Assembly (NCBI GenBank): GCA_905178155.1
Contig: CAJINV010000008.1
Coordinates: forward strand, 4,404,577-4,454,533
DNA: 49,957 nt
Direction: 5' to 3'
Origin: Amoebophrya sp. A120
Lineage: Eukaryota > Protista > Dinoflagellata
Both the position numbers and the translations under genes were made by a program. Positions 9,153 to 49,957 of the stretch are shown one piece after another. The notes beneath the pieces are model-generated. The model saw only the letters and a program-made list of their open reading frames with translations. It searched no databases and was not told the DNA's origin. Each line of letters begins with the position of its first letter. Position 1 is the first letter of the stretch.

Positions 9153-9153
9153 G

Positions 9154-9464: not shown

Positions 9465-9468
9465 CACT

Positions 9469-9520: not shown

Positions 9521-9521
9521 A

Positions 9522-10698: not shown

Positions 10699-10702
10699 CA
10701 GC

Positions 10703-10759: not shown

Positions 10760-10760
10760 A

Positions 10761-22660: not shown

Positions 22661-22901
22661 CGGACACGCGAGCACACGGCGCCAGGCCTCTGTCCGAGGC
22701 GCTGGCGCTGTGCGGCAGGGGGCGCACGCGCTGCCATGTCGTGCAGATCTGCGCACAGCAGCAGCACTACCTTGGCTTGCGTGTCGCGCGCCCTCACTTG
22801 CTGCTCGCGCAAGTGGGACTCATTGATTTGTTGAGCGCGGCTTGCGGCCACGCCCCAACTGGGGCGCGGGTCGCGTGGCGGAGTGCGGTAACGCGCGTCG
22901 T

Positions 22902-29400: not shown

Positions 29401-31486
29401 CTTTTGGAAGCATGCGTTGACTGTCGACGACGTTTCCAAGGCTGGTACGTGGACAATGAAATCCGAAGAGCCTATTCTCGGAGACGCAAGCAAACCTGGC
29501 ACCCTGAAACTTGCCGGGCCAGAACGGCTTCCCTACTTTTGATAGCTGTGAGTTGCGCGAGTAGATCCAAGCTCTTGGCCCAGATTCTCGAATGCAAGTG
29601 CGTGGGACTCAGGGCTAGGCAGTTCAGTTCCCCAAGAAGATACTCGATTCAGATTCATTCTCGAGATACGTTGCGCAGATCGTTTCCCGGTTCAGGATTT
29701 GGATTTCGTTTTCGATTCTGGATGTGATTTCCCGACCCTTATTGCGTTTAGATTTGGATCTCGTTCCGGTTCAGATTATCTTCTTGCTCAGATTACGGCT
29801 CTAATAATGATGATAGTTCTTCTATGGCGCGCTTAAAGTCGCGTTTTCAAAAGTCATAGTTTTTTTTTTTTGCTAGTCTTCAGGCACTGGCGCCGATTTT
29901 AATGCCCTGCCGATATGAGAATAGGGTCGCCCGAGCTGGCGCGCATAAATGCGATAGCACTGAGCCCCAGGAAGGCAGTTCGGACGGCGCGCAAAAGAAT
30001 GCCTCGCCGCGATCCTTCGTGGCGCATTCCGCGATGCAATTTCAAAAACCCCGGGGCCGCTTCGCCTCCCCCCGCCGCCTAAAGTTCTGAGCAAAGGAAA
30101 GGCGACGCGCCGCGGCTTAAAAGCCGAGCCCCGCCACAGTCTGGCGCACTTGCATGTAGTCCCACCAAGGCCCGGAAAGGCCCGGCCGCCCCACATGCGC
30201 CGCTCAGCTTGGTTCTGCATGTCAGCCGGGGCGCCGTGGCCTGCATGAGGGCGGATACCAATGCCGCCACGCGCCACACCGGCAAGATGCGCCTCGCGGC
30301 CGCCTCATGAGCCAGGCGCGCCGGCAAGGCGAGGCCGGCCCCTTCGTGGCGGGCCGTGGAAGGCCACGGCGGCGACGCCCTTTAAACAGGAAGCGCGCAG
30401 CCGCCGGCTGCGCCAAGTAGCGGTGGCGCCTTCCGTTCGGCGAATATTCTGAATGCCGCCAAGCGACCGACGGAAGACCAATATGCCAGCAAGCCACCCC
30501 AATCGACCCGGGGCCCGAGATTATGTGGCCCCGACGACCTTTGCTGGTGTCCTTCCGGGGCAACCTCCGCCGGCCCCATTCCGGAGGCCTCTTCAGAGGC
30601 CTCCTTGGGGGGCCTAGTTAGCTCGGGATTGCATGAAATCCAGGGGGGGTGATCCGGAGGCCATCCGGGCCGCCATTGTGGCCCACCAAGGGCTGCCCCA
30701 AAGGCCTCCGAAAGCGGCCCCAATTCAGTTGGAGGGGCGTGGGGCCGCGCAGCTGGCTAAAAAATGGCTAATTTTTTTCTGATTTTTGAAAACTCCGCGC
30801 GGCGAGGTAGCCGGTCGGGCCTCTCGTTTGCCGGTTGCCCGGCCTCCGCCCATTCCGGAGCCCGCGGCCATTGCCCTTGGCCCCGGGCTTCATCGTGTCA
30901 GCTTCGGCCCCCCCTTGCATGGATGGGCCGCGCCCTTTTTTGTTGCTCTGGTTTGCCGGGTATGGTTGGGCATTTGGGCCGCCCCGCGTAGTTCGGTGAT
31001 TCAGGGCATCGGCCGTCTGGTTTTTGCATATTTCCGCGCTTTCTGTGGTTTTGCATGGTTTCGGGCCTTATGATATTCGACAGCGGGATAGGGACGAAAA
31101 TTGTAGTCGTGGCAGCCGCCATGAGCAGCAGTTTTCGTCTCTTTTGTTCTGTCTGATGTAAGCTCCTATCTGTATTGCTTTCTATCTCGGCCTTCGGTGT
31201 TTGTTGCTCTGTTGTGTTTCATTTGCCCTACGGAAGAGGATCCACGTTCGTGCACATGTCGCCTGCTATCTTCAGTTTTGGAAATGGACAGGTTCCGGAC
31301 CTGTCCGTTTCCAAAACTGCGGCACTCGACCACTTTTCGCCTCATGGATATCTTCTAAATCTTCTTCTAAATCTGCTTACAAGGGATTTCCTTAGGGAAA
31401 TCAGTGTACTGCAGATTTAGAAGAAGGTGAAGAAGGTGTCCATCAGGCGAACATGTTGGTCGAATCAGAAAAAAGATAGTAGGCGA

Positions 31487-31627
31487 TTTAGAAGGTGGAT
31501 TTAGAAGGCAAAATAGAAGGCGAATTCAGAAGGAAAAATAGAAGGAAATTTAGAAACAAAAATAGAAGGGGAAAAATAGAAGGAAATTTAGAAACAAAAA
31601 TAGAAGGCCCTTCCATTTTTGTTTCTC
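31487..31627. repeat. ~12-bp TAGAAGG-core tandem repeat ending in a hairpin (copy at 40208-40348)
   Basis: aaaatagaagg/atttagaa units. agaaacaaaaatagaagg is followed by ccttccatttttgtttct. Confidence 0.8.
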
Positions 31628-32539
31628 GATCATGGCCCCAGGTGGTTGTTGGGTTGGGTTTTGTCTTCGGGGATTCCTATATGGATTTCGTCTGGAATTC
31701 CTTCTGGGGATCTGTCTATTTGGTTTGGGGTGTTTCTGACCGGGGCGTTGAGGCTCGTTCGAGAGAGTCGACTCGTGTCGAGGACACGACCGGCAATAAC
31801 ATGTTTTTCCCGATGCCGCTCTTCGAGTTCGCTCATACATTTTGCATTCTAGTGACACTTCATCCAGAATAAAATCGAATGGATCTATCCTGGAGGTGCA
31901 AAAAAACTATTCGAAAACTATGAAGATTCTCTATCGATTTCGATAACGGATTCGCAATCTAATCACCTATTCTCGCATTACAGATTCAAAATAAATCAGA
32001 AATAAAAATCGAAACCAAAAGCAGGAGGAGTCGATAATTAACTTCTGAAAATGACTTCTGGAAACAGGTGCGGATTGTCGATTTGATTCGTGGTTTCTCG
32101 TCCTGGGGGCTCGCGATCACAGGACTTCTGGTGAAAATCCTGGGAAATCGAGCTTTCCCCGACCTAACAGGACACTTCGATAGATGAAAATCTATCTGAT
32201 TCTATTCGAAAACCAATAAGAAATCAATCCGAATCACGATACTACTTTAGAATCAATAGGGTAAATCGATTCGACCGATAAATTCGTATTTTTAGTCGCG
32301 ATTCAGATATTCTAAAATCTATAAAGTCGATCCTATTTCTCTCCTCTATCCTGATTCCCGGTCAGAATCTCGATTCGATCGGGATTCGATAAAAAAAATA
32401 AATGAAATTATCTAAAACCCACTTCTGATTCTCGATCAGATTCCGCCTCGACTCGATGGAAAGTGAAAAGATAAACCCTAATTATGATTCCGAATCTTCG
32501 AAGATGGTGTTCAGCGCGCGCCAATCACCATCAATTTAC

Positions 32540-32930
32540 TTGATTCCGATACCCGATTTCCTCGATGGATTTCGATAAAGGAATAAATATATCTAGGATG
32601 ATTCGACTCGGATTCCCATTGGGATTCTCGAGAATCAAAATAAGAATGAATCTAATCGATTCCGATTCTCGATGGGGTTCACGAGAAACAAATAAAAGAA
32701 TAAACTCTACCTATCTCGATTCTGATTCGAATTCCGGATGGGATTTCGATAAAAGGAAACAAATGGGCTCTGATTCCGAGTCGATTCCCGATGGGATCCG
32801 ATTCGGGATAGAAAAATAGAAATCAATTCCCGATGGGATTCACAATAAACAAAGAAAGGAATAAATCTAATCTATTTCGATTCTGATCCGAATTCCGATG
32901 GGATTCGATCAAGAATAAATAAAATCTATC
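32540..32930. repeat. Degenerate ~55-60-bp tandem repeat (copy at 41261-41651)
   Basis: Recurrent gattc...cgatgggatt...aataaa...tcta units. Confidence 0.6.
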
Positions 32931-34028
32931 AGAATACCTCCTAGATAGGGCGAAAACCTAAAATATCATTACTCGAAATATTGCATGACAGATTCGATAT
33001 TTTTTTTTCTATGCCTGAGATCCGACCGAGATTACGATTACGAATAGAAAAAGGAAAATGAACACAACTAAAAAGTCCGATAGTTAGGGTGTGCAATCGC
33101 TTCTCAATTCGATTCGATGTTTTTTCTTCAACAATCCCTCCCGGGATGCGAAATAAATTCTTGAGTTCAGGCGCCTGTCAAAATGGAAAAGTGTTCATCT
33201 TCGTCGTGATTGATCCATTGATTTTTTTCATTAGAAATCAATCCGAATTCGTTCGATTTTCGTTGTTCTTTTCTCGTTCGATTTCAGAAGTGAAGTCAGG
33301 TATTTTGTCCGATTTCCATGGTGTTTCGATCTAAAATTTTCATCTAGAAAGTGTGTGAAAATTTTAATCATTTTTGGAAAAGATTTCTTGTTTCATTTTC
33401 GAGCGATCCTCCATTGTCGATTTGATTGATCCCCAAAGCAGAACCTACCGGATCGATTTCGTTTGAATCGCGATCCGGCTTTTGATGTGTGTATCAAGGC
33501 CTCTCTTCTGCTTGGGGAGTCTATCAATGTCGACATCTGGTGGGCTCGATTTTAGGTATAGAAGGATAAAATTTCTAAAATTATACATGTGGTTTTTGCT
33601 TTTCTTCATCATCCTATGAAAATATAAAGAAAAGTAGTTACCTCTATGCAGGTTCTGGTGAGTTCTGGTCTTTTCGAAAAAAATGATCTTGAAGGAAATC
33701 GCATGGCAATCTTGAAAAGAAAAAAAATCACAAATCATACATCTAAATCTTACAAGTGATCAAAATACGCATGCTCTTCTCCTTCTAGTCTGTTCGTTTC
33801 TTCTGTTTCCCCGATGACAGTGCCGATCCGATCGCGACGAATGCCTCCGAGCTATCGGATCCGGATTGCCGTCGGTTTTGGGTTCTTTTTCAGTAGTGAA
33901 AGTCTTTGAAAGTAGTCTAGTTTCCATATGGTTTTTCGCCTCTCTTTTGCATTCATTCCGGGGCGAAAATTAGTCATAGTATAGGCTAGATCTAGGGCAT
34001 TCTAATCGTAATTGCGGTGCTAGTAGGC

Positions 34029-37000
34029 CTACGCAGTCACTTCAGTTTCCTCATCTTCCCCCACCCGAATGTGGCTAATCAGGATCTGGTGGTCGATTCC
34101 CCGTCGGGTTCCTTTGATTTCCAGCGTCATGGAGGGCGGGCAGCAGAAGAACTCCTTCGTGGCCGGTTGCAGTTGGTCCGGGCGCTTTTCGGTGGTTGGT
34201 TTGTTCTTCAGTGGTCCCCGATTGGCATCCTGGGCCTCTTTGTTCAGGACGATGTAATCAACAGCAAAACCGGTCTTGTCATAGGTGCAGAAAGTCCAGC
34301 TTCGTTTCCCGTGCGTCACCTGAAGTGCCTTATTCTCGGTCCCCAGCAGTTTCTGGATACTGGCGGTTTCCTGGCGGGATGTAGATGGGGTTTCGCGGTT
34401 GTGCCGACCGTGCAGGCCGTAGATCGATCGGTCGATCACTCTGTTGAAGTCGCCGACGAGGATCCGCTTTCCCGGGCCGGCGAGCCACTGGCGCAGGTTC
34501 AGGTCCCAGGCCTGGGCCTGCTTGATGCGGCGCAGCTCCTCCATCGCGTTCACGCTGTACACATTCCCGAAGGTGTGCTCGCCCCCGACAACAATTTCCT
34601 GGAAGCGACCCTCATGTTGCACTTCGGACTCGAATCGGGTCGCGCCAAAGTATTCGTGTGGGAGGTCTCTGCGGGCGAGGGCAGCAGTGGACGAATAGCC
34701 GATCTTGGACACGCTCGGGCGCAGGTAGATCGTGTAATCGGAATCCAGTGCATTGAGCGCGTCGCGGGCTTTCGTTTCCAGCGATGGGGAGACTTTGGTC
34801 TCTTGCAAAAAAATCAGGTGGGGCTTCGTCTTCAGAATTTCTTCCAGGTCAAGCAGCCTCGGGCCGCTTTCGATCGAAGCAAACAGTCCATCGAGATTGT
34901 AGGAGACGATCACGATTTCCCCCGGCGGGAGGATTTCCGGCTGGCGACGCAACAGGGGCGGGCGGGCGGGCCACTCGCGGTCGAGCGTTCCCAGCTTCAC
35001 GAGTTCCTTTACGCGCTTCGAAACTTCGCCGGGAGTCAGGGCGGCAGTCAGGTATGCCAGGATCGCAGGCTCCGTAAGCGGGAGGGCACGAACCATCGTG
35101 ATCGCCTGAGGTTGCCCGAAGCGGATTCTGCGGCCGAGCAGGCAGCCAAGCACGACCGAGTTGGCATTCCGATGCTGGACGACGAAAATCCGGGGCAGAA
35201 ACTTCATTTCGTATTTGGACCGATCGGGTTTCAAGCGGATCACCATGTCGCCGGCAATTAGGTCCTTGTTGACGGTTTTCTGGGCTTCGCGTTTCACGCT
35301 CCGGCCGTGGTTGAAGATGCGGCTCGCAACAGCTTCGAAGTCGGTTTCTCGGCGTTTCTTGATCGCGAGCGAAACCTCATCGAGCAGATCCCCCTCGACA
35401 GTTGTGGAGAAAACAGCTTCGTTGGCGGCGATCGGCGCTGCAGCACCCCAGTGCCGTTCGACCAGAGATGCACCGGCATAGCTGCCCCGCGGTTGGATTC
35501 CGAGGAGGTAGCCAGCACGGCGGACATGGTCGGACCAGTTGGAAGGCAGGAACGCCATCGCATCTTCTTCCTGTGCTTCGGCTTCTTCGGCTGCTTGTTT
35601 CTTCCCTTTCGGGCCGCGCTTCACGTTGATCTTTTTCTTCTCGGCCACCAGTTTCATATCCGGGTCGTCGAGGACAACAAACAAAAACTCGCCGTCCATC
35701 GTGTTTCGTCGCTCCAGTCGGAAACTCGGTGGGGCCAGGGCGTGTAGCAGGCGGATCAGGAAGTTGAGAAGGTGGTGAGGGTGTTCGACCATCCAGTTTC
35801 CGGACGCGAGGTAGTGCGGGCTCTTCCAGGTCTTGACCTCGTGCAGGGGGTCGATTTTCTGGATGAGCGCGTTGAGGGTGTCCAGAAATAGACGCCCGAA
35901 ATGCGACCCGTTGTCGCATCGGATGTAGGAATACAGTGTGAAAGTTGCCAACATCAAGCGGAAGACGCAGTCGGCGGCCGTGGCTGCCGTCGCGTCCGTC
36001 GTCGGCTCCGCCCATGTCAGCTCGCTCCGTCCGTCGGTGGCCGTGAAGATGCTGCTGAACTCGTCACCGGAAGCAAGGCCACAGATGTAATCGATAAACA
36101 GCACCTGTCCCCGGTGCCTGAACAGCTCCAACCGTGGTTGCAGTCGCACTGAGCTCGGGCCTTGCTGTGCGTAGGGGCTGAGGCTGCAGTAGATGCATAA
36201 GGATACGATCTTGGCACAGAGGTCCAGCAATCCGCCCTCGACAAAGAAGCCTTTTCGCAGTGTTAGGTGGTAGAGGATGCCTTTCCGTCCGTGCGAAACC
36301 GCATGGATCGCACTGATCACAGCAACGGCGATGCTGGTATGGTCATAGGTCTGACCCTCGAACACAAATTCTTCAGGTTCCACAAGAGTGGGGAGCAGGA
36401 TCTTCCAGCCGTGGAGCGGGACTCGGAACTGCAGGACGTCGCCGCAGAGTCGGTAGGACGGGAGTCGCTCCAGCATCGCCATCGCCTTATTCCGTTTCGG
36501 GCGGAGGCCATGCTGCTTCGCAACCGCGAGCAGATGGGCGATCTGTTCCTCTTCTTCCTCGGATCGGGCGACAGCCTCGAAGGCAGCAAACTCCAGGACG
36601 AACTGGCGCTTCTGGGTCTCCGTTAGAACTTTCTTGAAATTGGGCTCCAGGTGCAGGTGGGCGATCAGCTTCCGCGCGAACAAGAGGTAGATCGTGTTCG
36701 GCCTCCGTTTCTCGAGAAAACTGTCCCCGACCACCAGAAACATCAGAGCACCGCCCCACCGGCGGATCTTTCCTTCCATGATGTTTCCTTCATCGTCTCG
36801 CGCGACCCGGATCTCGACGAACCGCGTCGCATTCTCGGCGGTATAGGTTTCGTCTTGCCCTTCGCCGACGAGAATGTGGATGGTGGACCAGAGCCACTCG
36901 GTCGAACTCGCGGGGAAGATAACTCTTTCGAGTTCCGTCGCGGTTTTCCAAAGGATGGAGTCCGCCTGGGCATCTTCGTCAGGCAGTTCGTCCCCGGGCG

Positions 37001-39314
37001 TCGATACTACAATCTCCGAGGCGTCGACAGTTCCCAGGCTGTCAAGGAGTGCGTCGAGTTCCTTCGCGCCTTTCTTCGGCGGCCCCATCTCGGGCGGCTC
37101 TGCTTGAATCTCGACCGGATTCTGTCCGTACTCCACTTCGACCGACGGGGACGCATTGGCAGGCCCGCGATCGCAAAAACATTGGAAAAGGAAATAGTTC
37201 TTAGAGTCGAAGATCACCCTTGCAGTCGGGCAGGACGGGTGCTCGTCGTCGTACAGTCTGGCGCCGCGTGGGAGGTGCATGCTCCGCGAGAACCAGACCG
37301 ACTCTGCGTCCAGTTCCGCACGGGGTGGCAGGATTTTATACTCTCGCCATGTTTTGCTAATAGGGTGGGATAGGTCGTGGCCGAGCATCTGGCGGATCAG
37401 TCGGTAGGCCCGCTCAGGCGGCCCGGCCTTTTTGTTTCGGTTCGTGAACCCATATCGAAGCCACCGGTCACCACAGGGTGGGAGGATGTACTTCGGGCGG
37501 AGGGTCACGACAAGATTGTTGCCCCGGACGTCGTCCTTCCGGCGGCAGTGGATGTGGAAAGCCCATTCGGGAAGCCGGAGCGGGACGACCTTCTCCTTGC
37601 TGTCGTCGTCCGGATTCAGCAATTGTTCTTCATCCTCCGGGGGGAGAAGATGCTGGTCCGCGTCCGGGCTTGCCGCGGGGGCGTTGGCGTCCTCCATGAG
37701 AACATCTTCATCATCAAAAATATCATAAATGCGGTCTGTTTCATCGTCTTCGTTTCCCTCTTCGGTACCTGTTTCGCCGTGTTTGCAGACGTTCCGCCCG
37801 GTGGGGCTTGCAGTGACTTCGTCGGCCAGGGCGGCAGCAGCGATCGCAACTTCTTCCGCCGCTTCCTCTGGGGATGCGACAGGGGCGACGTGAGCTTCCT
37901 CGTCCTCTTCGCGGGTGGCTGCGGGTCGGGTCTGCTTCGGCTTCGGCGCTGTTGCCGGGGGCGAAGGGTCGGACTCCTCCGATTCGACGACCGGAAACCC
38001 GGACAGCAACTCCTTCCAGACATCCGCACGCCAGTTGATGGGCCACGTTACAGCCTCGAAGAGTCTATTTACTCCGACGCAGTCCACCACAATCCGCCCC
38101 AGTAGCGACTTTTTCCGTTTTGCCAAGAACATGCTGGATATCAGTGACGGGGCCCCGGTCTGGGCGGCTTTCTTGAACCAGGGCTCGATAAACCCCTCGG
38201 CAATAGCTTCCTCGATCAAAAACTTCATAATGTGATCCAGCACGCCGGGCAGGCTGAAACGCCGCGAGACACCAGCGGCGGCCCGCGGGTTGATCGGGTG
38301 GAAGGCCTTCGCGATTCGGACCGTCGGGAAAGGCTGGCCCGGGGCCCAGAGGGCCGCGCGGAGGACGCAGCAAATCTTAATGAAGCAGCAGCGGAGCTCG
38401 AGCGGCATCTCAACGGGGAGCGTATTCAGGAGTGTAGTGCAGATCAGTTGGTGGAAGTCGCGGTCGGACAGTTTTTCCTGGGCTGCCTCCTTCCGCTTGG
38501 TAATTTCTGCGTCGATCTGCTCTTGGGTCGCGTTTCCACTGATCGCGTTTCTGACCTTCGTATCGGGGCCCGGATCTGCGACCTGTTTCTCTTGGTTGGG
38601 TGCAGAACCGACCTGGTGGAGCCGACAGCGCGCATGTTTGATCTGTTCTCCCGAAACGACGTCGCGAAGGACCACGCGGGGCTTGACAGTTTTCTTATGT
38701 TTTTCCAGTAAGGTAACTTCAAACCGGACCCCTTCCTCGAGTTCCGCGGGCGTCGCAGTGATCGGGGCGCCGGGGATCGACACCATCGGCGCAAACGAAA
38801 CATCGACCGAAACTGCTTGCGGTACCGGGAACAGGGTGCTACAGTCGATCCGGACGACATGCTCCGACGGCACGAATGGCTCCAATACCGATGGGTCCAC
38901 GGTCCAATACTCGGCGTCGGCGGACGGATCCGCCGGTGGCAGGCTGGCTAGCAAAAGTATTTCTTCCAGGTCCGGGTCCTCCGGGATCGGGGCGCCGTCA
39001 AAACGCTGAAACAGGTCCTTGACTTTCTCTTTCCATTCTTCGTGGTTCGCCTCGACGCCATCGGGCTTTGCTTCAGTGCCGGATCGGGATCCAATGTCTT
39101 CGAGGTTGCTGGACGACCCAACGCGGTGCACCCGGTAACAGAGGCGGCCGGAGAGTGCGGAATGAATTTCCGAAGCCATCGACGATAGGGAGCGCTCCGT
39201 CCTGACATCCTGGGAAGACGTGATCAGCTCCCGGATACCGGTGGAGCTGCAATCGAAGAAAAGGATAAAGGGCACCGAAAGCGGAATCTTTGGTAAGATT
39301 TCCCGGACAAAGTG
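34029..39314 (-). CDS. 5'-truncated duplicate of the retroelement polyprotein (end of RNase H, RT fingers, integrase, AP endonuclease)
   Basis: Same translation as the last ~1750 aa of 42750..49607. Cut at the N. Confidence 0.7.
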   Translation of the reverse strand, partial: HFVREILPKIPLSVPFILFFDCSSTGIRELITSSQDVRTERSLSSMASEIHSALSGRLCYRVHRVGSSSNLEDIGSRSGTEAKPDGVEANHEEWKEKVKDLFQRFDGAPIPEDPDLEEILLLASLPPADPSADAEYWTVDPSVLEPFVPSEHVVRIDCSTLFPVPQAVSVDVSFAPMVSIPGAPITATPAELEEGVRFEVTLLEKHKKTVKPRVVLRDVVSGEQIKHARCRLHQVGSAPNQEKQVADPGPDTKVRNAISGNATQEQIDAEITKRKEAAQEKLSDRDFHQLICTTLLNTLPVEMPLELRCCFIKICCVLRAALWAPGQPFPTVRIAKAFHPINPRAAAGVSRRFSLPGVLDHIMKFLIEEAIAEGFIEPWFKKAAQTGAPSLISSMFLAKRKKSLLGRIVVDCVGVNRLFEAVTWPINWRADVWKELLSGFPVVESEESDPSPPATAPKPKQTRPAATREEDEEAHVAPVASPEEAAEEVAIAAAALADEVTASPTGRNVCKHGETGTEEGNEDDETDRIYDIFDDEDVLMEDANAPAASPDADQHLLPPEDEEQLLNPDDDSKEKVVPLRLPEWAFHIHCRRKDDVRGNNLVVTLRPKYILPPCGDRWLRYGFTNRNKKAGPPERAYRLIRQMLGHDLSHPISKTWREYKILPPRAELDAESVWFSRSMHLPRGARLYDDEHPSCPTARVIFDSKNYFLFQCFCDRGPANASPSVEVEYGQNPVEIQAEPPEMGPPKKGAKELDALLDSLGTVDASEIVVSTPGDELPDEDAQADSILWKTATELERVIFPASSTEWLWSTIHILVGEGQDETYTAENATRFVEIRVARDDEGNIMEGKIRRWGGALMFLVVGDSFLEKRRPNTIYLLFARKLIAHLHLEPNFKKVLTETQKRQFVLEFAAFEAVARSEEEEEQIAHLLAVAKQHGLRPKRNKAMAMLERLPSYRLCGDVLQFRVPLHGWKILLPTLVEPEEFVFEGQTYDHTSIAVAVISAIHAVSHGRKGILYHLTLRKGFFVEGGLLDLCAKIVSLCIYCSLSPYAQQGPSSVRLQPRLELFRHRGQVLFIDYICGLASGDEFSSIFTATDGRSELTWAEPTTDATAATAADCVFRLMLATFTLYSYIRCDNGSHFGRLFLDTLNALIQKIDPLHEVKTWKSPHYLASGNWMVEHPHHLLNFLIRLLHALAPPSFRLERRNTMDGEFLFVVLDDPDMKLVAEKKKINVKRGPKGKKQAAEEAEAQEEDAMAFLPSNWSDHVRRAGYLLGIQPRGSYAGASLVERHWGAAAPIAANEAVFSTTVEGDLLDEVSLAIKKRRETDFEAVASRIFNHGRSVKREAQKTVNKDLIAGDMVIRLKPDRSKYEMKFLPRIFVVQHRNANSVVLGCLLGRRIRFGQPQAITMVRALPLTEPAILAYLTAALTPGEVSKRVKELVKLGTLDREWPARPPLLRRQPEILPPGEIVIVSYNLDGLFASIESGPRLLDLEEILKTKPHLIFLQETKVSPSLETKARDALNALDSDYTIYLRPSVSKIGYSSTAALARRDLPHEYFGATRFESEVQHEGRFQEIVVGGEHTFGNVYSVNAMEELRRIKQAQAWDLNLRQWLAGPGKRILVGDFNRVIDRSIYGLHGRHNRETPSTSRQETASIQKLLGTENKALQVTHGKRSWTFCTYDKTGFAVDYIVLNKEAQDANRGPLKNKPTTEKRPDQLQPATKEFFCCPPSMTLEIKGTRRGIDHQILISHIRVGEDEETEVTA

Positions 39315-39315
39315 N

Positions 39316-42300
39316 AGAGGCCTCCTTGGGGGGCCTAGTTAGCTCGGGATTGCATGAAATCCAGGGGGGGTGATCCGGAGGCCATCCGGGCCGCCATTGT
39401 GGCCCACCAAGGGCTGCCCCAAAGGCCTCCGAAAGCGGCCCCAATTCAGTTGGAGGGGCGTGGGGCCGCGCAGCTGGCTAAAAAATGGCTAATTTTTTTC
39501 TGATTTTTGAAAACTCCGCGCGGCGAGGTAGCCGGTCGGGCCTCTCGTTTGCCGGTTGCCCGGCCTCCGCCCATTCCGGAGCCCGCGGCCATTGCCCTTG
39601 GCCCCGGGCTTCATCGTGTCAGCTTCGGCCCCCCCTTGCATGGATGGGCCGCGCCCTTTTTTGTTGCTCTGGTTTGCCGGGTATGGTTGGGCATTTGGGC
39701 CGCCCCGCGTAGTTCGGTGATTCAGGGCATCGGCCGTCTGGTTTTTGCATATTTCCGCGCTTTCTGTGGTTTTGCATGGTTTCGGGCCTTATGATATTCG
39801 ACAGCGGGATAGGGACGAAAATTGTAGTCGTGGCAGCCGCCATGAGCAGCAGTTTTCGTCTCTTTTGTTCTGTCTGATGTAAGCTCCTATCTGTATTGCT
39901 TTCTATCTCGGCCTTCGGTGTTTGTTGCTCTGTTGTGTTTCATTTGCCCTACGGAAGAGGATCCACGTTCGTGCACATGTCGCCTGCTATCTTCAGTTTT
40001 GGAAATGGACAGGTTCCGGACCTGTCCGTTTCCAAAACTGCGGCACTCGACCACTTTTCGCCTCATGGATATCTTCTAAATCTTCTTCTAAATCTGCTTA
40101 CAAGGGATTTCCTTAGGGAAATCAGTGTACTGCAGATTTAGAAGAAGGTGAAGAAGGTGTCCATCAGGCGAACATGTTGGTCGAATCAGAAAAAAGATAG
40201 TAGGCGATTTAGAAGGTGGATTTAGAAGGCAAAATAGAAGGCGAATTCAGAAGGAAAAATAGAAGGAAATTTAGAAACAAAAATAGAAGGGGAAAAATAG
40301 AAGGAAATTTAGAAACAAAAATAGAAGGCCCTTCCATTTTTGTTTCTCGATCATGGCCCCAGGTGGTTGTTGGGTTGGGTTTTGTCTTCGGGGATTCCTA
40401 TATGGATTTCGTCTGGAATTCCTTCTGGGGATCTGTCTATTTGGTTTGGGGTGTTTCTGACCGGGGCGTTGAGGCTCGTTCGAGAGAGTCGACTCGTGTC
40501 GAGGACACGACCGGCAATAACATGTTTTTCCCGATGCCGCTCTTCGAGTTCGCTCATACATTTTGCATTCTAGTGACACTTCATCCAGAATAAAATCGAA
40601 TGGATCTATCCTGGAGGTGCAAAAAAACTATTCGAAAACTATGAAGATTCTCTATCGATTTCGATAACGGATTCGCAATCTAATCACCTATTCTCGCATT
40701 ACAGATTCAAAATAAATCAGAAATAAAAATCGAAACCAAAAGCAGGAGGAGTCGATAATTAACTTCTGAAAATGACTTCTGGAAACAGGTGCGGATTGTC
40801 GATTTGATTCGTGGTTTCTCGTCCTGGGGGCTCGCGATCACAGGACTTCTGGTGAAAATCCTGGGAAATCGAGCTTTCCCCGACCTAACAGGACACTTCG
40901 ATAGATGAAAATCTATCTGATTCTATTCGAAAACCAATAAGAAATCAATCCGAATCACGATACTACTTTAGAATCAATAGGGTAAATCGATTCGACCGAT
41001 AAATTCGTATTTTTAGTCGCGATTCAGATATTCTAAAATCTATAAAGTCGATCCTATTTCTCTCCTCTATCCTGATTCCCGGTCAGAATCTCGATTCGAT
41101 CGGGATTCGATAAAAAAAATAAATGAAATTATCTAAAACCCACTTCTGATTCTCGATCAGATTCCGCCTCGACTCGATGGAAAGTGAAAAGATAAACCCT
41201 AATTATGATTCCGAATCTTCGAAGATGGTGTTCAGCGCGCGCCAATCACCATCAATTTACTTGATTCCGATACCCGATTTCCTCGATGGATTTCGATAAA
41301 GGAATAAATATATCTAGGATGATTCGACTCGGATTCCCATTGGGATTCTCGAGAATCAAAATAAGAATGAATCTAATCGATTCCGATTCTCGATGGGGTT
41401 CACGAGAAACAAATAAAAGAATAAACTCTACCTATCTCGATTCTGATTCGAATTCCGGATGGGATTTCGATAAAAGGAAACAAATGGGCTCTGATTCCGA
41501 GTCGATTCCCGATGGGATCCGATTCGGGATAGAAAAATAGAAATCAATTCCCGATGGGATTCACAATAAACAAAGAAAGGAATAAATCTAATCTATTTCG
41601 ATTCTGATCCGAATTCCGATGGGATTCGATCAAGAATAAATAAAATCTATCAGAATACCTCCTAGATAGGGCGAAAACCTAAAATATCATTACTCGAAAT
41701 ATTGCATGACAGATTCGATATTTTTTTTTCTATGCCTGAGATCCGACCGAGATTACGATTACGAATAGAAAAAGGAAAATGAACACAACTAAAAAGTCCG
41801 ATAGTTAGGGTGTGCAATCGCTTCTCAATTCGATTCGATGTTTTTTCTTCAACAATCCCTCCCGGGATGCGAAATAAATTCTTGAGTTCAGGCGCCTGTC
41901 AAAATGGAAAAGTGTTCATCTTCGTCGTGATTGATCCATTGATTTTTTTCATTAGAAATCAATCCGAATTCGTTCGATTTTCGTTGTTCTTTTCTCGTTC
42001 GATTTCAGAAGTGAAGTCAGGTATTTTGTCCGATTTCCATGGTGTTTCGATCTAAAATTTTCATCTAGAAAGTGTGTGAAAATTTTAATCATTTTTGGAA
42101 AAGATTTCTTGTTTCATTTTCGAGCGATCCTCCATTGTCGATTTGATTGATCCCCAAAGCAGAACCTACCGGATCGATTTCGTTTGAATCGCGATCCGGC
42201 TTTTGATGTGTGTATCAAGGCCTCTCTTCTGCTTGGGGAGTCTATCAATGTCGACATCTGGTGGGCTCGATTTTAGGTATAGAAGGATAAAATTTCTAAA

Positions 42301-45300
42301 ATTATACATGTGGTTTTTGCTTTTCTTCATCATCCTATGAAAATATAAAGAAAAGTAGTTACCTCTATGCAGGTTCTGGTGAGTTCTGGTCTTTTCGAAA
42401 AAAATGATCTTGAAGGAAATCGCATGGCAATCTTGAAAAGAAAAAAAATCACAAATCATACATCTAAATCTTACAAGTGATCAAAATACGCATGCTCTTC
42501 TCCTTCTAGTCTGTTCGTTTCTTCTGTTTCCCCGATGACAGTGCCGATCCGATCGCGACGAATGCCTCCGAGCTATCGGATCCGGATTGCCGTCGGTTTT
42601 GGGTTCTTTTTCAGTAGTGAAAGTCTTTGAAAGTAGTCTAGTTTCCATATGGTTTTTCGCCTCTCTTTTGCATTCATTCCGGGGCGAAAATTAGTCATAG
42701 TATAGGCTAGATCTAGGGCATTCTAATCGTAATTGCGGTGCTAGTAGGCCTACGCAGTCACTTCAGTTTCCTCATCTTCCCCCACCCGAATGTGGCTAAT
42801 CAGGATCTGGTGGTCGATTCCCCGTCGGGTTCCTTTGATTTCCAGCGTCATGGAGGGCGGGCAGCAGAAGAACTCCTTCGTGGCCGGTTGCAGTTGGTCC
42901 GGGCGCTTTTCGGTGGTTGGTTTGTTCTTCAGTGGTCCCCGATTGGCATCCTGGGCCTCTTTGTTCAGGACGATGTAATCAACAGCAAAACCGGTCTTGT
43001 CATAGGTGCAGAAAGTCCAGCTTCGTTTCCCGTGCGTCACCTGAAGTGCCTTATTCTCGGTCCCCAGCAGTTTCTGGATACTGGCGGTTTCCTGGCGGGA
43101 TGTAGATGGGGTTTCGCGGTTGTGCCGACCGTGCAGGCCGTAGATCGATCGGTCGATCACTCTGTTGAAGTCGCCGACGAGGATCCGCTTTCCCGGGCCG
43201 GCGAGCCACTGGCGCAGGTTCAGGTCCCAGGCCTGGGCCTGCTTGATGCGGCGCAGCTCCTCCATCGCGTTCACGCTGTACACATTCCCGAAGGTGTGCT
43301 CGCCCCCGACAACAATTTCCTGGAAGCGACCCTCATGTTGCACTTCGGACTCGAATCGGGTCGCGCCAAAGTATTCGTGTGGGAGGTCTCTGCGGGCGAG
43401 GGCAGCAGTGGACGAATAGCCGATCTTGGACACGCTCGGGCGCAGGTAGATCGTGTAATCGGAATCCAGTGCATTGAGCGCGTCGCGGGCTTTCGTTTCC
43501 AGCGATGGGGAGACTTTGGTCTCTTGCAAAAAAATCAGGTGGGGCTTCGTCTTCAGAATTTCTTCCAGGTCAAGCAGCCTCGGGCCGCTTTCGATCGAAG
43601 CAAACAGTCCATCGAGATTGTAGGAGACGATCACGATTTCCCCCGGCGGGAGGATTTCCGGCTGGCGACGCAACAGGGGCGGGCGGGCGGGCCACTCGCG
43701 GTCGAGCGTTCCCAGCTTCACGAGTTCCTTTACGCGCTTCGAAACTTCGCCGGGAGTCAGGGCGGCAGTCAGGTATGCCAGGATCGCAGGCTCCGTAAGC
43801 GGGAGGGCACGAACCATCGTGATCGCCTGAGGTTGCCCGAAGCGGATTCTGCGGCCGAGCAGGCAGCCAAGCACGACCGAGTTGGCATTCCGATGCTGGA
43901 CGACGAAAATCCGGGGCAGAAACTTCATTTCGTATTTGGACCGATCGGGTTTCAAGCGGATCACCATGTCGCCGGCAATTAGGTCCTTGTTGACGGTTTT
44001 CTGGGCTTCGCGTTTCACGCTCCGGCCGTGGTTGAAGATGCGGCTCGCAACAGCTTCGAAGTCGGTTTCTCGGCGTTTCTTGATCGCGAGCGAAACCTCA
44101 TCGAGCAGATCCCCCTCGACAGTTGTGGAGAAAACAGCTTCGTTGGCGGCGATCGGCGCTGCAGCACCCCAGTGCCGTTCGACCAGAGATGCACCGGCAT
44201 AGCTGCCCCGCGGTTGGATTCCGAGGAGGTAGCCAGCACGGCGGACATGGTCGGACCAGTTGGAAGGCAGGAACGCCATCGCATCTTCTTCCTGTGCTTC
44301 GGCTTCTTCGGCTGCTTGTTTCTTCCCTTTCGGGCCGCGCTTCACGTTGATCTTTTTCTTCTCGGCCACCAGTTTCATATCCGGGTCGTCGAGGACAACA
44401 AACAAAAACTCGCCGTCCATCGTGTTTCGTCGCTCCAGTCGGAAACTCGGTGGGGCCAGGGCGTGTAGCAGGCGGATCAGGAAGTTGAGAAGGTGGTGAG
44501 GGTGTTCGACCATCCAGTTTCCGGACGCGAGGTAGTGCGGGCTCTTCCAGGTCTTGACCTCGTGCAGGGGGTCGATTTTCTGGATGAGCGCGTTGAGGGT
44601 GTCCAGAAATAGACGCCCGAAATGCGACCCGTTGTCGCATCGGATGTAGGAATACAGTGTGAAAGTTGCCAACATCAAGCGGAAGACGCAGTCGGCGGCC
44701 GTGGCTGCCGTCGCGTCCGTCGTCGGCTCCGCCCATGTCAGCTCGCTCCGTCCGTCGGTGGCCGTGAAGATGCTGCTGAACTCGTCACCGGAAGCAAGGC
44801 CACAGATGTAATCGATAAACAGCACCTGTCCCCGGTGCCTGAACAGCTCCAACCGTGGTTGCAGTCGCACTGAGCTCGGGCCTTGCTGTGCGTAGGGGCT
44901 GAGGCTGCAGTAGATGCATAAGGATACGATCTTGGCACAGAGGTCCAGCAATCCGCCCTCGACAAAGAAGCCTTTTCGCAGTGTTAGGTGGTAGAGGATG
45001 CCTTTCCGTCCGTGCGAAACCGCATGGATCGCACTGATCACAGCAACGGCGATGCTGGTATGGTCATAGGTCTGACCCTCGAACACAAATTCTTCAGGTT
45101 CCACAAGAGTGGGGAGCAGGATCTTCCAGCCGTGGAGCGGGACTCGGAACTGCAGGACGTCGCCGCAGAGTCGGTAGGACGGGAGTCGCTCCAGCATCGC
45201 CATCGCCTTATTCCGTTTCGGGCGGAGGCCATGCTGCTTCGCAACCGCGAGCAGATGGGCGATCTGTTCCTCTTCTTCCTCGGATCGGGCGACAGCCTCG

Positions 45301-48035
45301 AAGGCAGCAAACTCCAGGACGAACTGGCGCTTCTGGGTCTCCGTTAGAACTTTCTTGAAATTGGGCTCCAGGTGCAGGTGGGCGATCAGCTTCCGCGCGA
45401 ACAAGAGGTAGATCGTGTTCGGCCTCCGTTTCTCGAGAAAACTGTCCCCGACCACCAGAAACATCAGAGCACCGCCCCACCGGCGGATCTTTCCTTCCAT
45501 GATGTTTCCTTCATCGTCTCGCGCGACCCGGATCTCGACGAACCGCGTCGCATTCTCGGCGGTATAGGTTTCGTCTTGCCCTTCGCCGACGAGAATGTGG
45601 ATGGTGGACCAGAGCCACTCGGTCGAACTCGCGGGGAAGATAACTCTTTCGAGTTCCGTCGCGGTTTTCCAAAGGATGGAGTCCGCCTGGGCATCTTCGT
45701 CAGGCAGTTCGTCCCCGGGCGTCGATACTACAATCTCCGAGGCGTCGACAGTTCCCAGGCTGTCAAGGAGTGCGTCGAGTTCCTTCGCGCCTTTCTTCGG
45801 CGGCCCCATCTCGGGCGGCTCTGCTTGAATCTCGACCGGATTCTGTCCGTACTCCACTTCGACCGACGGGGACGCATTGGCAGGCCCGCGATCGCAAAAA
45901 CATTGGAAAAGGAAATAGTTCTTAGAGTCGAAGATCACCCTTGCAGTCGGGCAGGACGGGTGCTCGTCGTCGTACAGTCTGGCGCCGCGTGGGAGGTGCA
46001 TGCTCCGCGAGAACCAGACCGACTCTGCGTCCAGTTCCGCACGGGGTGGCAGGATTTTATACTCTCGCCATGTTTTGCTAATAGGGTGGGATAGGTCGTG
46101 GCCGAGCATCTGGCGGATCAGTCGGTAGGCCCGCTCAGGCGGCCCGGCCTTTTTGTTTCGGTTCGTGAACCCATATCGAAGCCACCGGTCACCACAGGGT
46201 GGGAGGATGTACTTCGGGCGGAGGGTCACGACAAGATTGTTGCCCCGGACGTCGTCCTTCCGGCGGCAGTGGATGTGGAAAGCCCATTCGGGAAGCCGGA
46301 GCGGGACGACCTTCTCCTTGCTGTCGTCGTCCGGATTCAGCAATTGTTCTTCATCCTCCGGGGGGAGAAGATGCTGGTCCGCGTCCGGGCTTGCCGCGGG
46401 GGCGTTGGCGTCCTCCATGAGAACATCTTCATCATCAAAAATATCATAAATGCGGTCTGTTTCATCGTCTTCGTTTCCCTCTTCGGTACCTGTTTCGCCG
46501 TGTTTGCAGACGTTCCGCCCGGTGGGGCTTGCAGTGACTTCGTCGGCCAGGGCGGCAGCAGCGATCGCAACTTCTTCCGCCGCTTCCTCTGGGGATGCGA
46601 CAGGGGCGACGTGAGCTTCCTCGTCCTCTTCGCGGGTGGCTGCGGGTCGGGTCTGCTTCGGCTTCGGCGCTGTTGCCGGGGGCGAAGGGTCGGACTCCTC
46701 CGATTCGACGACCGGAAACCCGGACAGCAACTCCTTCCAGACATCCGCACGCCAGTTGATGGGCCACGTTACAGCCTCGAAGAGTCTATTTACTCCGACG
46801 CAGTCCACCACAATCCGCCCCAGTAGCGACTTTTTCCGTTTTGCCAAGAACATGCTGGATATCAGTGACGGGGCCCCGGTCTGGGCGGCTTTCTTGAACC
46901 AGGGCTCGATAAACCCCTCGGCAATAGCTTCCTCGATCAAAAACTTCATAATGTGATCCAGCACGCCGGGCAGGCTGAAACGCCGCGAGACACCAGCGGC
47001 GGCCCGCGGGTTGATCGGGTGGAAGGCCTTCGCGATTCGGACCGTCGGGAAAGGCTGGCCCGGGGCCCAGAGGGCCGCGCGGAGGACGCAGCAAATCTTA
47101 ATGAAGCAGCAGCGGAGCTCGAGCGGCATCTCAACGGGGAGCGTATTCAGGAGTGTAGTGCAGATCAGTTGGTGGAAGTCGCGGTCGGACAGTTTTTCCT
47201 GGGCTGCCTCCTTCCGCTTGGTAATTTCTGCGTCGATCTGCTCTTGGGTCGCGTTTCCACTGATCGCGTTTCTGACCTTCGTATCGGGGCCCGGATCTGC
47301 GACCTGTTTCTCTTGGTTGGGTGCAGAACCGACCTGGTGGAGCCGACAGCGCGCATGTTTGATCTGTTCTCCCGAAACGACGTCGCGAAGGACCACGCGG
47401 GGCTTGACAGTTTTCTTATGTTTTTCCAGTAAGGTAACTTCAAACCGGACCCCTTCCTCGAGTTCCGCGGGCGTCGCAGTGATCGGGGCGCCGGGGATCG
47501 ACACCATCGGCGCAAACGAAACATCGACCGAAACTGCTTGCGGTACCGGGAACAGGGTGCTACAGTCGATCCGGACGACATGCTCCGACGGCACGAATGG
47601 CTCCAATACCGATGGGTCCACGGTCCAATACTCGGCGTCGGCGGACGGATCCGCCGGTGGCAGGCTGGCTAGCAAAAGTATTTCTTCCAGGTCCGGGTCC
47701 TCCGGGATCGGGGCGCCGTCAAAACGCTGAAACAGGTCCTTGACTTTCTCTTTCCATTCTTCGTGGTTCGCCTCGACGCCATCGGGCTTTGCTTCAGTGC
47801 CGGATCGGGATCCAATGTCTTCGAGGTTGCTGGACGACCCAACGCGGTGCACCCGGTAACAGAGGCGGCCGGAGAGTGCGGAATGAATTTCCGAAGCCAT
47901 CGACGATAGGGAGCGCTCCGTCCTGACATCCTGGGAAGACGTGATCAGCTCCCGGATACCGGTGGAGCTGCAATCGAAGAAAAGGATAAAGGGCACCGAA
48001 AGCGGAATCTTTGGTAAGATTTCCCGGACGAAGTG
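39316..48035. repeat. Second copy of the 8720-bp block
   Basis: Matches 30595-39314. Confidence 0.95.
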
Positions 48036-49618
48036 GAGCAGTCCCAGCAGTTCCATCCGACCCGACGAATTCGCGTTCCGCTCCTGCTCTTCCTCGGAAA
48101 ATCTCTTGTGGCCTGCAAAGATAACAGCATCCCGGCCGCGCTGCCGCTGGATACCGAAGACCGACATCCCCGGGCGGCAGCTGTCGATCCCGAAACGTGG
48201 AATCCCGCCGGTCGTTTTCCAGTTGACGGCGGCGAGCTCATCAAGCTCCGATAGCAGCACCGCCTTCCGCAGCTCCGCCTTACAGGAATCGAAGTACTGC
48301 TTTGCAGTTTCGTCGGCCGACAGCTTGGCAATAGGTATCTTCCCAAGTAGGTACTTAGAGAAGTGATCCAGAATCTCGGGCCAATTGCGGATGGCGTTCG
48401 ACATGTAGTTCGCAACACAAACGAACGACTTCAGCTCCTTCACGCTTCTGGGCATCGGCAGGGCATCGAATGCGGCGACCTTCTCTGGATCCGGGCGGCG
48501 ACCGCGGGTCTTGTAGCACAGCTCCCATCCTAGGATGTAGACCTTCGCCTTCACCAGGATTTTCGACAGAGAGAACTTGAAGCCGGAAACGCAGGCCCGG
48601 ACCAAGTGCTGTGCGAGTCGAATCAGGAGGGCAGCAGGTGAGTCGGCCCGGCTGTTGCAATCGTCCATGTAGGGGACGGAGTATCTCGATCCGGAGGGCT
48701 GGCCACTGATCAGGGAGGCGATTAGGTCGTCTTCGGTACTGGCGTCGTGGTTGCAGTAGTCTCGGTAGGTGCAGGCTGTTGCGGCGGTTCCGTACTGGTT
48801 CTGCAAGTCGGCGGCCGCTTGGTGGCTGCTCATCTGTGTGATGGTGTCCAGCTGGGCCGGCTGAAGCGCCGGATCTGTCAGCGAACCAAACACCAGAGCC
48901 ACCCACATCGAGTACAAAGCGGGGGCAAAGATGAGCCCCAAAAACATGCGGAGGGGGGAAAAAACTTTATTTCCATACCCTAGGGCCAAGAATCCTTTCA
49001 ACATTTCATGTAGGAGGAACTGCAGGAACCCCTTGGCATGATCAAGGCAAAGCCAAGAGCCATGCTTCATGGTGTCGAGCCAGGAGTATGGTCCACCCAC
49101 CCAGTTGCTGAAGCGAAGAACCCCAGCGACGATGAGGCCCACGAGCTGCACGACCAGAACATACTGGAGCCATCCACTAATAGGGTCGGTTTCCAGCTTC
49201 GGATTTCTCAGGTCGTCGGAGGTTTCCACATCCTGCACCCAGTTCCAAAGCTCTTCATTCTCGGCGCTGACCATCGAGGAGCGGAAGGTCGGGATCTTTG
49301 GTCTCTCATCTTCGTCGCTGCACGCTGTTTCGACAAAAGAGTACTGCGACAGTCGCTTGACGTTCTTTCCCTCCTCGAAGTTCTGCAGTCTGTTCATCCG
49401 GATAAAACTTTCTTCGACCGTTCCCCAGGTGACGGATTTCTTCGACAGTTCCCCGTCGTGAGGAGCAGACTGGTGATCGGCGATGTTACCACTCGGGCCG
49501 GCACTGGTGGCAGCAGGATCGGGGCCAAGACCGGGCGGAGCGGCGATCATCTTCGCCTTCGGGGTTCGCTCGTTGTTAATCCAGTGCGGGCAGCGTGGTA
49601 CCATCAAAGGTTCTCTTC
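39790..49618 (-). mobile_element. Telomere-abutting retroelement: pol ORF plus long AT-rich 3' non-coding region. 3' boundary approximate.
   Basis: Pol domains as above. Composition changes near 39790 (31070 in copy 1). No paired LTRs are visible. Confidence 0.6.
42750..49607 (-). CDS. pol: Ty3/gypsy-type pol polyprotein, 5'-truncated: RT palm/thumb - RNase H - displaced RT fingers - integrase - EEP/AP endonuclease
   Basis: RT: CLDHAKGFLQ (~49020-49049), RMFLGLIFAPALY, YMDD (48660-48671), PDPEKVAAF..P..P.SVKELKSF...ANY. RNase H: IDSCRPG, MELLGL, FILFFD. Integrase: H-x3-H...C-x2-C, FIDY, CDNGSHF, MVE. EEP: SYNLDG, LQETK, EGRF, NVY, GDFN, WTF, VDYI, IDH. Confidence 0.93.
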   Translation of the reverse strand: MMVPRCPHWINNERTPKAKMIAAPPGLGPDPAATSAGPSGNIADHQSAPHDGELSKKSVTWGTVEESFIRMNRLQNFEEGKNVKRLSQYSFVETACSDEDERPKIPTFRSSMVSAENEELWNWVQDVETSDDLRNPKLETDPISGWLQYVLVVQLVGLIVAGVLRFSNWVGGPYSWLDTMKHGSWLCLDHAKGFLQFLLHEMLKGFLALGYGNKVFSPLRMFLGLIFAPALYSMWVALVFGSLTDPALQPAQLDTITQMSSHQAAADLQNQYGTAATACTYRDYCNHDASTEDDLIASLISGQPSGSRYSVPYMDDCNSRADSPAALLIRLAQHLVRACVSGFKFSLSKILVKAKVYILGWELCYKTRGRRPDPEKVAAFDALPMPRSVKELKSFVCVANYMSNAIRNWPEILDHFSKYLLGKIPIAKLSADETAKQYFDSCKAELRKAVLLSELDELAAVNWKTTGGIPRFGIDSCRPGMSVFGIQRQRGRDAVIFAGHKRFSEEEQERNANSSGRMELLGLLHFVREILPKIPLSVPFILFFDCSSTGIRELITSSQDVRTERSLSSMASEIHSALSGRLCYRVHRVGSSSNLEDIGSRSGTEAKPDGVEANHEEWKEKVKDLFQRFDGAPIPEDPDLEEILLLASLPPADPSADAEYWTVDPSVLEPFVPSEHVVRIDCSTLFPVPQAVSVDVSFAPMVSIPGAPITATPAELEEGVRFEVTLLEKHKKTVKPRVVLRDVVSGEQIKHARCRLHQVGSAPNQEKQVADPGPDTKVRNAISGNATQEQIDAEITKRKEAAQEKLSDRDFHQLICTTLLNTLPVEMPLELRCCFIKICCVLRAALWAPGQPFPTVRIAKAFHPINPRAAAGVSRRFSLPGVLDHIMKFLIEEAIAEGFIEPWFKKAAQTGAPSLISSMFLAKRKKSLLGRIVVDCVGVNRLFEAVTWPINWRADVWKELLSGFPVVESEESDPSPPATAPKPKQTRPAATREEDEEAHVAPVASPEEAAEEVAIAAAALADEVTASPTGRNVCKHGETGTEEGNEDDETDRIYDIFDDEDVLMEDANAPAASPDADQHLLPPEDEEQLLNPDDDSKEKVVPLRLPEWAFHIHCRRKDDVRGNNLVVTLRPKYILPPCGDRWLRYGFTNRNKKAGPPERAYRLIRQMLGHDLSHPISKTWREYKILPPRAELDAESVWFSRSMHLPRGARLYDDEHPSCPTARVIFDSKNYFLFQCFCDRGPANASPSVEVEYGQNPVEIQAEPPEMGPPKKGAKELDALLDSLGTVDASEIVVSTPGDELPDEDAQADSILWKTATELERVIFPASSTEWLWSTIHILVGEGQDETYTAENATRFVEIRVARDDEGNIMEGKIRRWGGALMFLVVGDSFLEKRRPNTIYLLFARKLIAHLHLEPNFKKVLTETQKRQFVLEFAAFEAVARSEEEEEQIAHLLAVAKQHGLRPKRNKAMAMLERLPSYRLCGDVLQFRVPLHGWKILLPTLVEPEEFVFEGQTYDHTSIAVAVISAIHAVSHGRKGILYHLTLRKGFFVEGGLLDLCAKIVSLCIYCSLSPYAQQGPSSVRLQPRLELFRHRGQVLFIDYICGLASGDEFSSIFTATDGRSELTWAEPTTDATAATAADCVFRLMLATFTLYSYIRCDNGSHFGRLFLDTLNALIQKIDPLHEVKTWKSPHYLASGNWMVEHPHHLLNFLIRLLHALAPPSFRLERRNTMDGEFLFVVLDDPDMKLVAEKKKINVKRGPKGKKQAAEEAEAQEEDAMAFLPSNWSDHVRRAGYLLGIQPRGSYAGASLVERHWGAAAPIAANEAVFSTTVEGDLLDEVSLAIKKRRETDFEAVASRIFNHGRSVKREAQKTVNKDLIAGDMVIRLKPDRSKYEMKFLPRIFVVQHRNANSVVLGCLLGRRIRFGQPQAITMVRALPLTEPAILAYLTAALTPGEVSKRVKELVKLGTLDREWPARPPLLRRQPEILPPGEIVIVSYNLDGLFASIESGPRLLDLEEILKTKPHLIFLQETKVSPSLETKARDALNALDSDYTIYLRPSVSKIGYSSTAALARRDLPHEYFGATRFESEVQHEGRFQEIVVGGEHTFGNVYSVNAMEELRRIKQAQAWDLNLRQWLAGPGKRILVGDFNRVIDRSIYGLHGRHNRETPSTSRQETASIQKLLGTENKALQVTHGKRSWTFCTYDKTGFAVDYIVLNKEAQDANRGPLKNKPTTEKRPDQLQPATKEFFCCPPSMTLEIKGTRRGIDHQILISHIRVGEDEETEVTA

Positions 49619-49957
49619 TAGGGTTTAGGGTTTAGGGGTTTAGGGGTTTAGGGGTTTTGGGGTTTAGGGGTTTAGGGGTTTAGGGGTTTAGGGGTTTAGG
49701 GGTTTAGGGGTTTAGGGGTTTAGGGGTTTTGGGGTTTAGGGGTTTAGGGGTTTTGGGGTTTAGGGGTTTAGGGGTTTTAGGGTTTTGGGGTTTAGGGGTT
49801 TAGGGGTTTTGGGGTTTAGGGGTTTAGGGGTTTTGGGGTTTTCGGGTTTTGGGGTTTTGGGGTTTAGGGGTTTAGGGGTTTTGGGGTTTTGGGGTTTAGG
49901 GGTTTTGGGGTTTTGGGGTTTTGGGGTTTTGGGGTTTTGGGGTTTTGGGGTTTTGGG
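49619..49957 (+). repeat. Telomeric tract: two TTTAGGG-type units, then mixed TTTAGGGG/TTTTGGGG
   Basis: G-rich strand runs 5'->3' to the end of the sequence, the correct polarity for a right chromosome end. Confidence 0.95.

Follow-up and report, generated by a model that had tools for sequence, protein, structure and literature searches.

The locus studied here, a stretch of 49,957 nucleotides referred to below as the window, raised the question whether a reverse transcriptase (RT) can be encoded in two pieces of reversed order, with its fingers downstream of RNase H, or whether the arrangement is an accident of one damaged or misassembled copy. To our knowledge every known RT is one continuous fold in which the fingers motifs come before the palm.

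Domain order of the window protein

The RT was located in a 2293-codon stop-free frame on the reverse strand (42750-49631), whose residues were numbered from the ATG at 49604 (protein P0001). The sequence-only reading had described this single pol-like ORF as a 2285-aa protein; it is indeed free of stops, but it is what remains of a longer gag-pol-like frame, which lacks its 5' part and was cut at the telomere. Asp188 of motif A was encoded at 49041-49043 (-) and YMDD at 48660-48671. An RT test profile of 343 positions, built from 11 normal-order relatives, gave three matches in the window protein, with aa 186-244 corresponding to profile positions 138-196 (E 1e-4), aa 310-450 to positions 199-340 (E 1e-25) and aa 848-959, C-terminal of RNase H, to positions 20-128 (E 2e-11). 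The matches did not overlap and their order was reversed, as had been predicted, though they were obtained via the profile of relatives and not via RVT_1. The RT had also been claimed to begin at motif A without motifs 1-2 before it, and no fingers match was found in the upstream region. Degenerate fingers N-terminal to motif A were rejected because this region (alignment of eight rows, with P0011 left out for an empty slice) matched neither normal-order (E 0.69) nor distant gypsy-type RT profiles. Judged by sequence comparison, the RT of the window ORF is permuted at the junction of motif 2 and motif A inside one stop-free ORF, as originally read, and this order is common to a divergent family.

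All parts of the enzyme lie on the reverse strand. Motifs A and B with Asp188 (48873..49061, profile positions 138-196) are followed by an insert of about 64 aa between motifs B and C (48681..48872), the length of which varies across the split family and which is missing in the relative P0014. Motif C (YMDD), motifs D-E and the thumb (48255..48680) were identified by profile, Pfam and structure matches. RNase H (47793..48233) has the acidic residues D474, E518, D544 and D596, each kept in 10/10 rows of the family alignment. The displaced N-terminal RT segment, that is the fingers with motifs 1-2 and residues F919, R923, R930, D934 and N939 (46716..47063, aa 848-963), was assigned by profiles and conservation. 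A helical extension (47064..47264) is N-terminal to the fingers in normal-order relatives as well and was relocated together with them; its family profile matched P0002 at 19-203, P0003 at 724-901 and other normal-order relatives.

The usual place of the fingers before motif A is occupied by a family-conserved hydrophobic helix that is not fingers-like (aa 137-163; 49116..49196, -). Its hydropathy was 1.6-2.7 in 8/9 split members and 1.3 in P0014, compared with 0.6-0.9 in the two normal-order relatives checked. This segment resembles a membrane helix, lies 34-77 aa N-terminal to motif A in split members and is absent from the same two normal-order relatives. Between RNase H and the fingers is a beta-sandwich of about 90 aa (47325..47597, -) that is conserved in the main split clade. 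A dUTPase-like linker was rejected here, as the fold is a generic beta-sandwich with a non-significant best structure match (Z 6.2), and so was a protease between RNase H and fingers, as the protease of long members lies upstream of motif A and P0001 showed no such motif. The integrase (44445..45047, -) comprises an H1527/H1531/C1563/C1566 zinc finger and D1598, D1657 and E1700, and its family profile matched Ty3 Gag-Pol and foamy virus integrase. At the C-terminus we found an APE1/exonuclease III domain of the cellular type that has the catalytic residues N, E, Y, D-x-N and D-H (42795..43649, -; Pfam, PDB and conservation), which the earlier account of the domains had left unmentioned. All of its PDB matches (33/33) were cellular AP endonucleases, its family profile matched human APE1 with E 1e-31, and an xth model matched with a score under the model's cut-off. 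Pfam recovered only the C-terminal Exo_endo_phos from the whole window protein; when the protein was scanned in pieces, rve (E 3.7e-6) and a weak RVT_1 match (E 0.027, profile 71-202) were added.

The fingers segment by itself gave no relevant match in Pfam or in PDB sequences (one search used a poor alignment), and its identity therefore depends on profiles of relatives. In profile-profile comparisons the downstream module of the split family matched normal-order fingers with P=99% and E 8.9e-18. Against 22 distant gypsy-type RTs the module reached P=72% and E 3.4e-5, and three control modules E 0.09-0.53. An Atlas search of the fingers piece returned RT as a lead only (0.86).

Palm, thumb and RNase H were modelled confidently by AlphaFold (aa 162-985). 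The best Foldseek matches of the palm model were RTs of CaMV, MMLV, foamy virus and Ty3 (MMLV RT: Z 18.5, rmsd 6.1, 320 residues aligned), and the family RT profile matched Ty3 RT 4ol8 (E 2.8e-7). Since the palm model begins at MMLV RT residue 144, or HIV-1 RT residue 104, it lacks exactly the N-terminal part of RT (the first 103 residues of HIV-1 RT). In both models the greater part of the fingers had pLDDT <50, and they were predicted partly as helix with low confidence; in the single-chain model residues 731-824 were <50. Folded separately, the fingers module gave a poor model and no RT structure match. The docking of the downstream segment on the palm that had been expected from AlphaFold was not obtained (fingers pLDDT about 30-60).

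Median pairwise identity in the split-family alignment was 28% (range 21-62%). YxDD was found in 9/9 rows covering the site, F919, R923 and R930 in 10/10, N939 in 9/10 and D934 in 8/10. Of the seven rows covering the integrase, 6-7 kept each of the HHCC/DDE residues, and of the six covering APE, 5-6 kept each catalytic residue. The spacing of R923-R930-D934-N939 (7/4/5) equals that of K65-R72-D76-N81 in HIV-1 RT.

Relatives, genomic copies and descent

We searched 1.84 billion representatives with window positions 46650-49121 and obtained 112 matches. Classification of 116 proteins gave 43 with normal order and 12 flagged as permuted, namely the window protein, eight relatives, P0115 and P0116, which were not counted as they are cluster mates of P0013, and P0105, which was dropped because it is actually a tandem RT duplication. 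P0009 and P0011 fell below the classifier thresholds, showed the same split order in other profile comparisons and so were counted. The resulting 10 split relatives belong to separate 50%-identity clusters (P0004-P0011, P0013 and P0014) and share with the window protein a break point at RT profile positions of about 128 to 136. Four of them carry the name Amoebophrya; one belongs to strain A25 and the other three to AT5.2, in which they represent three different 50% clusters. P0008 was deposited under a SAR202 bacterial MAG, a label that is probably due to eukaryotic contamination. The closest relatives of the split family have normal order and match RVT_1 and RT_RNaseH. Pfam missed the RT in 7/7 split relatives scanned (P0004, P0006, P0008, P0010, P0011, P0014 and the fragment P0012) as well as in the whole window protein, and such elements have therefore probably been overlooked in protist genomes.

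Nine split relatives had the order palm-thumb-RNase H, linker, fingers, and in the seven of them that were long enough integrase and APE followed. P0014 showed palm-thumb-RNase H, integrase, APE and then fingers (2591-2703 of 2722 aa); only one sequence, on one contig, represents it, and it could be misassembled. Each split protein had exactly one fingers module, including four proteins of 5367-6191 aa with long N-termini. Counted from motif A towards the C-terminus, the fingers ended after 771-953 aa in 8 members and after 2397 aa in P0014, and this variation suggests that their position is free.

A protease-like domain was present about 500-650 aa before motif A in P0005, P0007, P0009 and P0013; the profile had been built from P0005, P0013 and normal-order P0003, and found P0007, P0009 and normal-order P0015 too. 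The whole-domain order PR-RT-RH-INT is thereby present in these four, and the window copy is without PR via its truncation. The same proteins have giant N-terminal regions of 3300-3900 aa, in which we found two common blocks and, in 3/4, a CX2C-H-C motif. An Atlas search of one of these blocks as a gag/capsid query gave nothing above 0.82. P0005 also contains a stretch resembling methyltransferase motif I, judged by eye.

Quick trees with long branches were calculated from 60 palm/thumb/RNase H stretches and from 47 fingers stretches. The split members formed one clade in both (SH-aLRT 93 for palm/RNase H and 97 for fingers), from which P0014 branched off first. In each tree the closest kin were the same environmental elements of normal order (98 and 99). 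As both trees agree, the halves appear to descend from a single RT that was split once. The two layouts are circular permutations of a block beginning at the fingers, which would fit duplication with reciprocal loss. This is the likely origin of the split, the fingers having changed position at least once afterwards.

In the window copy the 5' part of the element is replaced by a telomere-like array of 22 TTTAGGGG and 16 TTTTGGGG units (49616..49957, +). The window sequence departs from other copies at 49616, and these run beyond 49615 on a 3154-nt contig with the frame open for nine visible codons. Since the other copies continue where the window enters telomere repeats, the window copy is 5'-truncated and healed; it has neither gag nor protease and is probably unable to move on its own. 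The mixed TTTAGGGG/TTTTGGGG array is joined straight into the ORF, in an orientation like that of chromosome-end retroelements, in this single case. Telomere repeats of the TTTAGGG/TTTGGGG type, as in the window, are reported from an Amoebophrya strain (PMC7789003), which makes Amoebophrya the likely host. The family as a whole probably belongs to parasitic dinoflagellates of the sea.

Contigs identical to the window had depths of about 19-23 or 40-47 and variant contigs were three to four times higher, contig depth being a rough guide only to copy number. The variant copies were about 3-6% different and collinear, with no joint in 46500-49648, and contigs of other copies spanned the RNase H-linker (47245-48029) and linker-fingers-spacer (46500-47480) regions. 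For 40 listed of 164 differences between the window and other copies, 30/40 were at third codon positions and pN/pS was 0.10 (fingers core 0.08; APE end 0.12, 29 differences); by these substitution patterns the split element appears to be under strong purifying selection. All copy data derive from a single sample (X1 = X2, two runs), possibly the same source as the window. Two RNA runs placed no reads, and from one possible RNA run a single contig of 160 nt was obtained.

The ORF is followed by a 3' non-coding stretch (42407..42749, -) in which other copies are at least 90% identical. Similarity to them stops at about 42407, with a depth step and contig boundary at 42407-42436. There was no doubling of depth over 42407-42750 and hence no LTR signal, at a 90% cut-off that misses diverged non-coding DNA. 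Positions 30595-39317 repeat 39316-48038 with one mismatch, an 8.7-kb duplication with a single N at 39315. Window-identical contigs had a depth of 19-23 inside this repeat and 18.7 outside; given this single-copy depth, the duplication is most likely a scaffolding or assembly overlap. A tandem array of two elements was rejected, as the apparent second copy (34029-39338) belongs to the duplication.

Several further features were observed in the window. The AT-rich 3' flank has a long palindrome cluster and a 12-bp tandem repeat at 31273-31626 (= 39994-40347), for which Rfam gave one hairpin match far below threshold. A second multicopy stretch of the 3' flank (39320-39663), which shows loose ends and where one contig connects 39506 with 40231, could be the true 3' end of the element or another repeat. 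A run of 12 A lies downstream of the element (29860-29871, -). At 9150-11730 direct repeats are interleaved with inverted ones (30-270 nt), an arrangement reminiscent of introner or MITE ends. GC-rich dispersed repeats of 55-87 nt and a 114/232-nt tandem array occupy 21530-23470, where overlapping ORFs had no Pfam match. An ORF at 7305-9386 (+) carries a Laminin_G_3 domain (Pfam), and an 857-nt direct repeat with 96% identity is found at 1-857 and 14651-15500.

Proposed assembly of the two pieces and alternative explanations

We consider it probable (about 0.72) that the window holds a truncated copy of a multicopy gypsy-type lineage in which the displaced fingers rejoin palm, thumb and RNase H into an active RT, either by folding back or by binding after a predicted protease cleavage. 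The polyprotein would be translated whole in genomic order and processed by the element's aspartic protease. The fingers would then dock non-covalently on the palm piece, tethered via the 180-240-aa linker or freed by the protease, and their free position in P0014 speaks for release by cleavage or for a tether that is very loose. The rebuilt RT would copy the element RNA and the integrase would insert the cDNA, and the captured APE1-type enzyme would probably clean or trim cDNA ends or repair the insertion site. A broader view, to which we give somewhat less than even odds, is that of an undescribed lineage of giant syndinian retroelements with a natural two-subunit RT, in which the fingers are protease-released and repositionable, and with integrase and captured APE1; such elements might replicate in the absence of ordinary LTRs and prefer chromosome ends.

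An origin of the order by misassembly, or by a single rearrangement of a copy that is dead, was suggested by the 8.7-kb duplication around an N nearby on the scaffold and by the truncation of the window copy. The sequence-only reading had named normal order in other copies as evidence for such an artefact, but their contigs bridge RNase H, linker, fingers and spacer without joints, and the break is common to ten independent relatives. The split order is therefore neither a misassembly nor a one-off wreck, and we see next to no room for this explanation. We also think it very improbable that the family consists of domesticated host genes instead of a mobile element. The purifying selection, the cellular-type APE1 domain and the lack of a visible LTR or target duplication (in a window copy whose 5' end is missing) would fit domestication, but the ORFs are giant and intronless, the integrase is intact, several copies are about 3-6% apart and one Amoebophrya strain has three 50% clusters.

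Two other explanations, both unlikely in our view, accept the split and differ in how the enzyme would work. The fingers may have been repurposed or serve as a mere scaffold, with the palm working in their absence and helped by the insert between motifs B and C and the new helix at the N-terminus. This agrees with the degenerate motifs 1-2 (DCVGVN and DAVGVN vs DYRxLN) and with the partly helical, low-confidence AlphaFold prediction, and is at odds with the two invariant arginines, Asp and Asn at the 7/4/5 spacing of retroviral dNTP-/template-binding residues. Alternatively, the fingers might be placed directly before motif A by back-splicing or trans-splicing of the RNA, which would allow a normal contiguous RT to be translated. 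The two pieces nearly abut on the RT profile (128, then 136-138), and non-canonical introns are abundant in Amoebophrya according to the accessible text of PMC7789003. Such repair at the RNA level would, however, have to act on one frame that is open across the whole region in all members, and in P0014 it would require a circle of about 7 kb. The conserved coding helix just before motif A, at a distance of 34-77 aa, suggests instead translation together with the palm.

Comparison with known systems

With Ty3/gypsy elements (Metaviridae) the split family shares the LTR-class palm/thumb fold of RT, RNase H, an H2C2 and DDE integrase after RNase H, and in long members an upstream protease. It differs in its discontinuous, order-swapped RT, in the APE1-type domain after the integrase and in ORFs of up to 6191 aa. 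The element would work in the manner of Ty3/gypsy, but as the contiguous motifs 1-2 before motif A were not found, and no LTR signal or capsid match was obtained in the regions searched, we call it a gypsy-derived lineage rather than file it as a Ty3/gypsy member. The split family does not fit APE-type non-LTR elements (LINEs), since the listed RT structure matches of the split family are all LTR, retroviral or caulimoviral and its APE is C-terminal and cellular-type, whereas the LINE APE is located before the RT. HeT-A/TART and Athena are telomere-associated retroelements of the non-LTR or Penelope-like type. The window copy resembles them in its 5' truncation and in its orientation, in which the 5' part adjoins the telomere and the element faces away from the end of the chromosome, but the split element has an integrase and only one copy was seen at a telomere.

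The Naiad/Chlamys Penelope-like elements are retroelements described as having permuted domains (PMC8557442). In them the change of order concerns whole domains; their RT itself is not known to be split, and its class differs from that of the split family. LTR elements with captured host enzymes in pol, such as an extra RNase H or DNA methyltransferases, are described in the parts available of two reports (PMC5348765, 10.64898/2026.05.21.726589). The split family likewise has a cellular enzyme added to pol, in its case of the APE1/ExoIII type. This cargo is not unique to it, as the normal-order gypsy-type polyprotein P0109, from a four-member cluster, carries Exo_endo_phos at 715-978, about 900 aa before the RT.

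The accessible texts on Amoebophrya elements (PMC7789003, PMC12130899) and on marine RTs (PMC5029228) describe no split RT. We found no split or permuted RT in the mainly open-access literature searched, though such elements may be listed in Repbase, in subscription papers or in the supplements of the two Amoebophrya studies; within this literature, a two-piece, order-swapped arrangement was found described for RNA-virus polymerases and not for RTs. Birnaviridae and Permutotetraviridae RdRps have a permuted C-A-B motif order within one protein, as stated in the parts seen of two sources (PMC7724248, 10.1101/2021.03.02.433648). There motif C is relocated within the palm, whereas the split family keeps A-B-C and has the whole N-terminal fingers relocated 770-2400 aa downstream, past other domains. 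Narna-like splipalmiviruses have a polymerase in two pieces needing reassembly (PMC7724248, accessible text). Their RdRp is split between motifs B and C over two genome segments, whereas the split RT is broken before motif A within one ORF. By structure match and HIV-1 RT numbering, the natural split point of a two-part RT would lie between about HIV-1 RT residues 95 and 104, and such an enzyme offers a direct test of RT subdomain assembly. A selected, ancient split of this kind would mean that nucleotide-binding fingers can come as a separate piece in RTs, as in some RNA-virus polymerases.
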